The notes beneath the pieces are model-generated. The model searched no databases. It worked only from the letters and a program-made list of their open reading frames with translations, and was not told the DNA's origin. The translations under genes and the position numbers were made by a program. A stretch of DNA of 4,733 nucleotides from a virus (taxonomy: Duplodnaviria > Heunggongvirae > Uroviricota > Caudoviricetes), in IMG/VR virus record IMGVR_UViG_3300029450_000024; one strand, 5' to 3'. Shown piece after piece: positions 1-2,039 of the stretch; the first letter of the stretch is position 1; each line of letters begins with the position of its first letter.

Positions 1-69
1 CGGTGGAGCTGCATGACAAAGTCATCGGGCATTATCTGAACATAAAACACTATCAATAAGTTGGAGTCA

Positions 70-225
70 TTACCCTGACGTGCATTGCTCAAGTTTTTTA
101 GCCAGCACAAAACTGGCTTTTTTATAGCCATTGAAAACCAGCCGTAAGTAGCCAGGTGTTGAGCCAACTTTTCCGGCCAACTCGCCCTGCTGTTCTTTGG
201 TTAAAGAGTCCCAATACGCTTTCAT
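70..225 (-). CDS. Cro-like small HTH transcriptional regulator (51 aa), divergent from the repressor gene
   Basis: Minus-strand ATG (rc of 223..225) lies 7 nt downstream of a GGAGG Shine-Dalgarno (rc of 236..240); stop is rc of 70..72. Product MKAYWDSLTKEQQGELAGKVGSTPGYLRLVFNGYKKASFVLAKKLEQCTSG resembles short Cro/YdaS-type HTH proteins. Divergent position opposite a CI-like repressor. The provided ORF (70..528) is longer, but its upstream part runs antisense through the repressor gene and lacks an RBS. Confidence 0.65.
   Translation of the reverse strand: MKAYWDSLTKEQQGELAGKVGSTPGYLRLVFNGYKKASFVLAKKLEQCTSG
99..123 (+). terminator. Terminator-like hairpin plus T-tract on the plus strand, embedded antisense within the cro-like coding region
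   Basis: AGCCAG (100..105) / loop CACAAAA (106..112) / CTGGCT (113..118), with six T in a row at 118..123 (the first is the closing stem base). On the minus strand the stem is followed by A-rich sequence, so it is not a minus-strand terminator. Confidence 0.3.
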
Positions 226-227
226 AC

Positions 228-252
228 AATATGTACCTCCGGTGTACATATT
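228..252. promoter_or_regulatory. Operator-like palindrome AATATGTAC-N7-GTACATATT (OR1-like), overlapping the cro RBS/transcript start and the -10 of the leftward promoter
   Basis: Inverted repeat with 9-bp arms (228..236 and 244..252) around a 7-bp spacer, read directly from the sequence. Same core as the 281..299 palindrome. Confidence 0.55.
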
Positions 253-275
253 ACATGATTGAAATGAACCTTCAA
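248..275 (-). promoter_or_regulatory. PR-like sigma70 promoter for the cro-like gene (leftward)
   Basis: On the minus strand: -35 TTGAAG (rc of 270..275), 16-nt spacer, -10 TAATAT (rc of 248..253). Predicted start lies about 15 nt upstream of the cro ATG, leaving room for the GGAGG RBS. Confidence 0.4.
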
Positions 276-279
276 GATA

Positions 280-300
280 CTTGTACCTTAGCGGTACAAG
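280..300. promoter_or_regulatory. Operator-like palindrome CTTGTACC-N5-GGTACAAG (OR3-like), overlapping the -35/spacer of the rightward repressor promoter
   Basis: Perfect 8-bp inverted arms (280..287 / 293..300). Core TTGTAC-N7-GTACAA matches the ATGTAC-N7-GTACAT site at 231..249. Confidence 0.55.
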
Positions 301-990: not shown

Positions 991-1004
991 TCAATGTTTA
1001 TGAA

Positions 1005-1025
1005 CCTGCTTCGGCAGGTTTTTTT
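1005..1025 (+). terminator. Rho-independent terminator downstream of the repressor gene (tImm-like)
   Basis: Stem CCTGC (1005..1009) / loop TTCG / GCAGG (1014..1018), followed by a run of 7 T (1019..1025), 15 nt after the repressor stop codon. Confidence 0.7.
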
Positions 1026-1029
1026 ATAC

Positions 1030-1057
1030 TTGACAATGTACCTTTGAGATACATAAT
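1030..1057 (+). promoter_or_regulatory. PL-like strong sigma70 promoter driving the rightward early operon
   Basis: -35 TTGACA (1030..1035), 16-nt spacer, -10 CATAAT (1052..1057), placed immediately after the terminator. Confidence 0.6.
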
Positions 1058-1594: not shown

Positions 1595-1810
1595 AACTAT
1601 TTCCTTCTTGGCTATATGAAAACACCAAGATACCACCGAGCCTGAAGTGGTGAAAAGACAGGCACATAACAGCTAAGTATTTTCAACCAAAGAGAATCCT
1701 TAGCGTTGTGGTGAATGCGGCTCAGCGCACGCGGGTTAAGGTTGAGGCTGACAGTCGACCTTCTGTGGATACCCACCCGTCTGGTGTGCAACCTTCGCCA
1801 GGCACCGGGA

Positions 1811-1831
1811 GGCACCCGGCACCCGGCACCA
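1811..1831. repeat. Tandem heptamer repeat GGCACC(C/A) x3, with a further GGCACC copy at 1801..1806
   Basis: Direct reading: GGCACCC (1811..1817), GGCACCC (1818..1824), GGCACCA (1825..1831), inside a GC-rich non-coding island. Confidence 0.6.
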
Positions 1832-1855
1832 CAACTTTATGCTGTGTGTAGTCCT

Positions 1856-1902
1856 GGCGGTACCAGTTTGTACCCTTGCTTCCGGCTGGTACCGTCCTTT
1901 TT
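1856..1902 (+). terminator. Terminator-like hairpin (tL1-like) upstream of the yfdP homolog
   Basis: Stem CGGTACCAG (1858..1866) pairs with CTGGTACCG (1886..1894), extendable by G1857-U1895 and G1856-C1896; 19-nt loop; then C + TTTTT (1898..1902). Plus-strand only. The long loop makes its efficiency uncertain. Confidence 0.45.
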
Positions 1903-2039
1903 ACAAAACAGAGAAGAGCATCACCGGACGACGGGCTCATAACCCAATCCATCCGGGCGGCTGCCACCGCAGGTGTTCTTCTCTGTTTTGTGGAGAAACT
2001 AATCGGCCTTGCAGGGTCGATATGATGAGGAGCAGCAAA

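Follow-up and report, generated by a model that had tools for sequence, protein, structure and literature searches.

The window, by which we mean the whole 4,733-nt stretch of DNA that was analysed, differs at one position (1 mismatch) from nucleotides 3719153-3723885 of E. coli strain 81 (NZ_CP088131.1), where the host locus is a decayed lambdoid prophage adjoining tRNA-Thr and proA. The first 73 positions (1-73, plus strand) are the right-hand terminus of a copy of IS1A. Read on the opposite strand, 1-74 begins with GGTAATGACTCCAACTTATTGATAG, the IS1 terminal repeat, the IS1A transposase CDS is annotated in NZ_CP088131.1 as far as window position 59, and prophage homologs without IS1 align with the window from position 74 onward only. 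A truncated croE/ymfT-like gene occupies 70-225 on the minus strand; compared with the intact 66-aa YmfT of strain N9, its translation retains 51 of 66 codons and ends at a stop codon supplied by the IS1 terminal repeat. A CI-type repressor gene of the ymfK/cohE type (224 aa, annotated ymfK, "LexA family protein") follows at 316-990 on the plus strand. Beyond the repressor, the order is terminator, promoter, yfdP-yfdQ-yfdR-yfdS-yfdT, and then xis and int.

Strain N9 carries an uninterrupted relative, with ymfT, ymfL, replication genes, Q and others to the left of the repressor. The full cro gene and the lytic operon are retained in such intact relatives (strain N9, SfV), and genes of the PR operon beyond the truncated cro are absent from the window. 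Intact YmfT, which is Cro-like, gives weak Pfam matches to YdaS and HTH_3, and YmfL is a CII-like (Phage_CP76) protein. The region had been put forward in the preliminary description as a compact bistable switch; because the IS1 insertion has cut cro off after codon 51 of 66 and taken the place of the lytic arm, this copy is no working switch.

The C-terminal part of the repressor (residues 93-212) is matched by Pfam Peptidase_S24 (PF00717, E = 1.5e-26), and the C-terminal domain is also similar to lambda cI C-terminal domain chains (E = 1.9e-9). Predicted autocleavage features are found at VQA100-G101, at Ser138 in GDSM and at Lys176 in TFKRL, the aligned counterpart of TFKKL in lambda cI. 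Residues 1-92 have no match in Pfam or NCBIfam, and no sequence similarity to the lambda cI N-terminal domain is detectable. An N-terminal profile of 16 orthologs recovers a repressor chain, 5d50_A (residues 1-77, E = 3.2e-5), and a phage CI chain, 7nkv (E = 3.3e-3). The N-terminal domain is a putative HTH domain, assigned by remote homology (E = 3e-5). Chain 5d50_A ("Repressor") is presumably Rep of Salmonella phage SPC32H, and among solved structures this protein (PDB 5D50) is the one most closely related to the N-terminal DNA-binding domain of the window repressor. SPC32H Rep is inactivated by an antirepressor, and its DNA binding is reported to be tetrameric and non-canonical in mode (PMC9638917). 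The two differ in their C-terminal domains, that of the window repressor being of the self-cleaving S24 type, unlike SPC32H Rep.

Two palindromes are read directly from the sequence between the cro remnant and the repressor gene: ATGTAC-CTCCGGT-GTACAT at 231-249 and TTGTAC-CTTAGCG-GTACAA at 281-299. With its flanks, the right palindrome has perfect 8-bp arms (280-300), and the left one extends to an imperfect repeat with 15-nt arms (222-236 / 244-258). The earlier statement that both have a common TGTAC-N7-GTACA core and lie at these places is borne out. Sites of the form TGTAC-N7-GTACA with at most one mismatch are found three times in the window (at 232, 282 and 1037) against an expectation of 0.07, and none of 200 dinucleotide-preserving shuffles of the window reaches three sites. 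The sequence also contains, letter for letter, TTACAT (251-256) and ATGAAC (264-269).

For comparative footprinting, repressor homologs with their flanking DNA were collected from one genome per species, giving 24 loci, 19 of them encoding 73-100% identical proteins. The divergent phages Hafnia yong2 and Edwardsiella EPP-1 were added, bringing the set to 21 loci from approximately 15 genera, and an anchored alignment was made of 20 loci (the window plus the 19 footprinted loci). All 21 loci have two upstream sites with starts exactly 50 bp apart, and all 21 have one site around 50 bp past the stop codon, with none further in the 3.6-kb loci. The refined consensus is TGTACC-N5-GGTACA, with 2.0 bits per column in the half-sites and 0.2-0.8 bits at the five central bases. 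This pattern of invariant half-sites and free spacers across approximately 15 genera suggests that the palindromes serve the neighbouring 224-aa repressor as operators, in line with the preliminary description. Individual sites were scored with a weight matrix built from other genera, that is from loci other than e14. Across the 37-kb SfV genome, scores above 20 bits are seen at the three strong sites only, and the next score, 9.7 bits, falls at the OL2 position. A LexA (SOS) box, the consensus of which is CTGT-N8-ACAG, was considered and rejected, as no CTGT...ACAG can be placed in register with sites that read TGTACC-N5-GGTACA.

Back-to-back promoters are associated with these sites. The cro promoter, PR, is predicted at 248-275 on the minus strand, with a -35 of TTGAAG (275-270), a 16-bp spacer and a -10 of TAATAT (253-248); across the 20 aligned loci, conservation is seen in its -10, which reads ATATTA or, in Edwardsiella and Rahnella, ATTATG, and in the TTG at the -35. 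The repressor promoter, PRM, lies at 281-316 on the plus strand, with a -35 of TTGTAC (281-286), a 17-bp spacer, a -10 of TTTAAT (304-309) and a start at 316. In the alignment, a conserved TAAT precedes the ATG by 6 nt (by 7 nt in Edwardsiella), and a Shine-Dalgarno sequence is lacking. Differential RNA-seq of K-12 places ymfK among only five leaderless mRNAs, and in its supplementary table the e14 ymfK start site is at distance 0 from the start codon (PMC4681348). As the e14 start is at the ATG and the sequence is identical here, the PRM start corresponds to window position 316, the A of the ATG. The portion of the dRNA-seq supplement examined (PMC4681348) lists no start site for PR or PL; their starts are predicted close to 240-243 (minus strand) and at about 1064 (plus strand), respectively.

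The cro remnant and the repressor gene are 90 bp apart, with three conserved sites between them that overlap predicted PR and mapped PRM. Operator a (OR1-like, TGTACC-TCCGG-TGTACA, 232-248) has no mismatches, scores 26.4 bits and is at the same position in all 21 loci. Within it lie the region where PR is predicted to start and the Shine-Dalgarno sequence of cro (GGAGG, 240-236, minus strand). The left site had been described as overlapping both the -10 and the ribosome-binding site of cro; the overlap with the Shine-Dalgarno sequence is upheld, and the site abuts the predicted PR -10. Operator c (OR3-like, TGTACC-TTAGC-GGTACA, 282-298) is a perfect match to the consensus with no mismatches (22.7 bits), and its half-sites have 2.0 bits per column as against 0.3-0.6 in the spacer. 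The earlier placement of the right site in the repressor promoter proved correct, since it falls within the PRM core, the start of which has been experimentally mapped at the ATG in e14 (PMC4681348). With the PRM start at 316, site c (centre 290) lies at -26 and site b (centre 273) at -43.

Operator b (OR2-like, TGAACC-TTCAA-GATACT, 265-281) is weak. It overlaps the PR -35, abuts operator c without a gap and scores 11.8 bits; the best scores of shuffled windows have their 95th percentile at 9.4 bits. Its left half, TGAACC, has a deviant A for T that is invariant in all 19 footprinted loci other than the window, its right half is GGTACT in most loci and genera, and it is 83% identical to the OL1 region. 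Part of this conservation could come from the overlapping -35 elements of PR and PRM. A weaker everted pair, TTACAT..ATGAAC (251..269), had been suggested as the middle element. This pair was rejected as a third operator, as the conserved unit is 265-281 (TGAACC-N5-GATACT) and 248-253 is the predicted PR -10. The 251-269 pair forms no unit because ATGAAC is the left half of site b and TTACAT overlaps the predicted cro -10.

A second set of operators is found downstream of the repressor gene, at the early-left promoter. The intrinsic terminator of the repressor gene (1002-1028, plus strand) has an 8-bp stem followed by a T run. Its stem pairing is kept in other genera through compensatory changes (ACCTGC/GCAGGT, ACCCGC/GCGGGT, GCCTGC/GCGGGC), and it is annotated in the SfV and Ayreon records. 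It is followed by a PL-type early-left promoter (1030-1057, plus strand; TTGACA, 16 bp, CATAAT), which matches the promoter consensus at 11 of 12 positions, is invariant across the 20 loci and is annotated as a promoter in phage Ayreon. Operator OL1 (TGTACC-TTTGA-GATACA, 1037-1053) lies between the PL -35 and -10, with 1 mismatch and a score of 26.3 bits, and is found in every homologous locus. The arrangement TTGACA-ATGTACC-N5-GrTACATAAT-GTACC follows the terminator in 20 of 20 loci (the window and the 19 footprinted ones). Operator OL2 (TGTACC-CAACC-GAAACA, 1057-1073) is weak, with an invariant left half and a partly conserved right half. Beginning with the final base of the -10, it extends over the point where PL is predicted to start, and the centres of OL1 and OL2 are 20 bp apart. 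OL2 scores 9.7 bits in e14 and SfV and <6 bits in the window, and better copies are seen in Edwardsiella and Trabulsiella. The conserved PL leader (1064-1170) was also considered as a structured RNA, and was discarded because it folds no better than shuffled sequences (z = -0.9).

The linkage of motif and repressor was followed in both directions. A reverse search of IMG/VR with the PL/OL pattern alone returned at least 120 contigs. Among the matches listed, a repressor homolog with 74-100% identity is directly upstream in all 103 contigs that have at least 900 bp of upstream DNA, and the three-site OR architecture is present in 98 of these 103, in 42 distinct sequence variants. Phage SfII served as a swap control: it has downstream genes in common with the window, and the conserved leader after PL, with an unrelated cI N-terminal domain. 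SfII has no site within 3 mismatches of the TGTACC-N5-GGTACA consensus, and in the equivalent places it carries a different repeated motif of the TTGCG/TCACGCAA type. The preliminary description had proposed that the motif should be sought together with repressor homologs in prophage genomes, and the two do occur together, in 21 of 21 loci in the forward direction and, among the matches listed, in 103 of 103 contigs in reverse. Thus, from co-occurrence in both directions and absence from SfII, the motif goes with the repressor allele, which is how operators that determine immunity specificity should behave.

The immunity module (74 to approximately 1120) is around 99% identical to that of K-12 e14 (ymfT/croE, ymfK/cohE) and 95-99% identical to those of SfV, SfIV, PhiR29/R49, Ayreon, cdtI and a set of Stx2c phages, with 97.8-98.9% for SfV, SfIV and PhiR29. 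Beyond 1120 the window diverges from these relatives, which marks a mosaic boundary. All five sites are present in e14, and within them e14 departs from the window only by G291A, which falls in the site c spacer. From cro to approximately 90 bp past the PL promoter e14 is like the window, and it is in e14 that the leaderless ymfK transcript has been mapped; downstream of PL the two differ, with ymfJ-intE in e14 and yfdP-yfdT in the window. The integration site of e14 is icd. That of the window prophage is the tRNA-Thr beside proA, and the IS1 that cuts cro in the window is likewise not the e14 arrangement. In contrast to the window, SfV, SfIV, cdtI, Ayreon, PhiR29 and the Stx2c phages are complete and inducible, with cro and the lytic operon intact.

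The operator region is already known: it is the e14 immunity region of K-12, and it is pre-marked in the SfV record U82619.2, in which the feature at 26377..26445, labelled "putative operator region", coincides exactly with window positions 231-299. The palindromes had been described earlier as a distinct operator sequence; they are indeed unlike those of lambda, but as the e14/SfV immunity region they are not new. Given the SfV record and the identity to e14, their recognition is a correct rediscovery of a known, predicted regulatory region. According to its abstract, the e14 analysis of Mehta et al. 2004 reportedly recognised the sites bound by repressor and Cro through a comparison with SfV. 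In the records of the SfV group, the individual sites, the middle site and the OL sites are unmarked. What is added here is the resolution of five predicted sites, their consensus, their conservation across genera and their tie to the mapped leaderless start.

The layout resembles lambda in many respects: cro and cI are divergent with three operators between them, PL operators lie past the cI terminator, the cI mRNA is leaderless, the sites are 17 bp and dyad-symmetric, and a weak middle site lies approximately 42-43 bp upstream of the PRM start, lambda OR2 being at about -42 from its PRM start. The C-terminal domain of the repressor is homologous as well, with AG/Ser/Lys autocleavage features. 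The operator sequence here, however, is unrelated to that of lambda, which is TATCACCGCCAGTGGTA-like. Spacing of the three operators is 33 + 17 bp compared with 24 + 23 bp in lambda, two OL sites rather than three are found, sites b and c abut as they do not in lambda, and, again unlike lambda, no N or nut system was identified here. The autoregulatory layout analogous to lambda OR that had been proposed for this region is therefore largely right, except that its middle site was misplaced and the two sites on the PL side (1037-1073) were missed.

The palindromes are very probably operators of the e14/SfV type (TGTACC-N5-GGTACA), to which the CI-type repressor encoded next to them (YmfK/CohE) would bind as dimers. 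In the searchable literature, no experiment was found on the binding of YmfK or YmfT to these sites, only statements of a "putative repressor". We infer binding itself, the order of occupancy, activation from site b and the start sites of PR and PL. Site a would act where transcription from the leftward cro promoter begins and where ribosomes bind, and repressor dimers at a and b together would block PR. Site b would be a deliberately weakened copy over the cro -35, at which repressor may stimulate PRM, the position being that from which lambda cI at OR2 does so. When site c, between the PRM -35 and -10, is filled, PRM would be turned off, and the repressor would thus limit its own synthesis. 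At OL1 and OL2, repressor would block the near-consensus PL that drives the yfdP-yfdT/xis/int operon. DNA damage would lead to RecA-stimulated self-cleavage of the repressor at Ala100-Gly101, and repression would be lifted. In intact phages, the Cro-like YmfT would presumably bind the operators also.

The centres of a and b are 33 bp apart, or approximately 3.1 helical turns, and so lie on the same face of the helix. Dimers at a and b may pair cooperatively, as may those at OL1 and OL2 (20 bp, approximately 1.9 turns), and sites b and c (17 bp between centres, approximately 1.6 turns) would be on opposite faces. As site c is the best copy of the consensus and yet sits in the PRM core, a lambda-like occupancy order of a, b, c is an assumption. 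In K-12 transcriptomes the e14 genes form a co-regulated, stress-induced module (PMC10602906), and SOS induction of e14 functions is known (bioRxiv 10.1101/2020.11.19.390815); the model of SOS-induced self-cleavage fits both. In the window, what can remain of the circuit is an autoregulated repressor that keeps PL off and confers superinfection immunity, the circuit itself being vestigial.

The sites may be operators of the same repressor that work by a logic other than that of lambda, with a higher-order oligomer bridging a and c, or OR and OL, or with b and c as an exclusive toggle; such a logic is conceivable, although we consider it rather unlikely. The abutting of b and c, with centres 17 bp (approximately 1.6 turns) apart, would suit it, as would the invariant 50 bp from a to c and the location of site c, the best copy of the consensus, inside the core of PRM. 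For SPC32H Rep, the nearest relative of the N-terminal domain with a solved structure, tetrameric and non-canonical DNA binding is reported (PMC9638917), so that higher-order binding by the window repressor is possible. Since b and c abut on roughly opposite faces, occupation of one might exclude or antagonise the other. It can be suggested tentatively, with the odds against it, that occupancy of b and c is mutually exclusive and makes a direct activate/repress toggle at the leaderless PRM, with a pairing with b across the 16-bp gap. The lambda-cI/LexA-like C-terminal domain of the repressor, unlike that of SPC32H Rep, argues for the lambda-like reading instead, as do the a-b and OL1-OL2 spacings near whole helical turns and the centre of site b at -43 from the mapped PRM start, which matches lambda OR2.

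It is improbable that the main protein on these sites is one other than the repressor, for example YmfT (Cro-like), YmfL (CII-like) or some factor of the host. In intact phages cro and ymfL travel with the same module, so that co-occurrence by itself does not fully tell them apart from the repressor. However, OL sites and repressor gene are linked in 103 of 103 contigs among the matches listed, and in the window all sites are still intact with cro truncated and ymfL absent. Cro and CI share operators in lambdoid phages, so Cro binding would add to repressor binding rather than replace it.

A role of the palindromes as RNA hairpins, terminators or attenuators is highly improbable. A simple scan does list 280-300 as a terminator-like stem-loop, followed by GGTTTTAATT, but OL1 sits between a -35 and a -10, and the operator stems never covary, unlike the true terminator at 1002-1021. 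Transcription of 280-300 is not expected, as it lies upstream of the mapped ymfK start and of the predicted PR -35. As an intrinsic terminator, 280-300 was accordingly rejected, being upstream of that start, with an invariant stem without covariation and a tail of only four T. That the palindromes arose by chance or as a by-product of GTAC-rich composition, for which there is nothing beyond the general frequency of short palindromes, can be practically dismissed given 0 of 200 shuffles, positions conserved across genera while spacers diverge, and absence elsewhere in the 37-kb SfV genome.

Taken as operators of the adjacent repressor, the five sites have some practical uses. The e14/SfV type, which includes e14 of K-12, is among the commonest prophage immunity types of E. 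coli: of 5,426 complete genomes of the species, 1,324 (24%) carry its module. The operator map helps to predict which prophages have a common immunity, shows which e14 genes are under direct repressor control, the SOS-inducible division inhibitor ymfM included, and helps to correct mis-annotated start codons of repressors. The arrangement is a textbook lambdoid one, and no new type of system is revealed.

Elsewhere in the window, within the PL operon, a candidate structured RNA is seen at 1898-1996, in a stretch annotated as a frameshifted pseudogene. Its predicted fold is a very stable three-way junction (-51.2 kcal/mol, z = -7.8). An Rfam scan of the whole window gave no family covering 1898-1996, with one sub-threshold STnc100-like match just upstream (1683-1904). 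The first inner hairpin is CGGGCUCAUAACCC, which we take to resemble the anticodon arm of initiator tRNA; no tRNA was found by an ARAGORN tRNA scan. The element is found in 106 of 153 loci, SfII among them, in 46 sequence variants, and compensatory double changes are seen in 8 of its 38 predicted pairs. This RNA is unrelated to the operators, and it appears to be the more interesting of the two.

A strongly folding RNA is predicted at 1898-1996 on the plus strand, as a three-way junction closed by a stem of about 25 bp (-51.2 kcal/mol, z = -7.8), and its stability is rated very high. It lies upstream of yfdP, in the operon driven by the predicted early-left promoter PL, within a stretch that is annotated as a frameshifted pseudogene. 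The RNA is found in 106 of the 153 loci compared, including phages of another immunity type, and compensatory double changes are seen in 8 of the 38 pairs of the fold. Its inner hairpin, CGGGCUCAUAACCC, resembles the anticodon arm of initiator tRNA-fMet. When the window was scanned with Rfam, no family covered 1898-1996. Possible roles for the RNA are an RNase III processing site, a mimic or decoy of a tRNA arm, or an sRNA.

The interval 1683-1904 (+) matches STnc100 (RF02076), a family of prophage sRNAs, over the full length of the model but below the threshold (E = 8e-4, 30 bits versus a gathering score of 47). STnc100 has been linked to the PasD prophage sRNAs (2026 preprint). The predicted PL transcript opens with ~50 nt (1070-1120, ACGAACAGGCAGGACGCCCACGAAGTAGCCGCC...) that are conserved across phages of other immunity types and hosts, namely SfII, Citrobacter phiNP, Klebsiella Kp4866-6, Pantoea AH07 and Yersinia YeP1-3. 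Folding of this leader gave no significant RNA structure (z = -0.9).

The window differs from its best database match, NZ_CP088131.1, only at 241, where the window has G and NZ_CP088131.1 has T. This position falls in the non-conserved spacer of putative operator a, one of the predicted repressor sites between the cro-like and repressor genes, and G is also present at the equivalent position in the cryptic prophage e14 and in strain N9. Phage SfII, which has a different cI, carries a repeated motif of its own (TTGCGCG / TCACGCAAT / TTGCATAT.TCGCAA), both between cro and cI (1527-1623 of the SfII locus) and past the cI terminator (2317-2440); presumably this is the SfII operator family.

In two of the relatives, the annotated repressor start conflicts with a conserved ATG located 6-7 nt past a conserved TAAT. 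The start is placed 22 codons early, within the operator region, in Edwardsiella phage EPP-1 (L007 1520-2254), and 39 codons late in Hafnia phage yong2 (L006 1833-2390). Both starts are probably mis-annotated.

At the left end of the window, an IS1A insertion (1-73) cuts the cro-like gene (70-225) after codon 51 of 66, with the stop codon supplied by the IS1 terminal repeat. Left of the IS1A end, IS elements and fragments stand in place of ymfL and the replication, Q, lysis and structural genes. In strain N9, YmfL (ymfL, L002 5357-5908) matches Phage_CP76, the phage CII regulatory protein family (E = 1.2e-13). This is at odds with the SfIV genome paper, according to which SfV-type phages have no cII.
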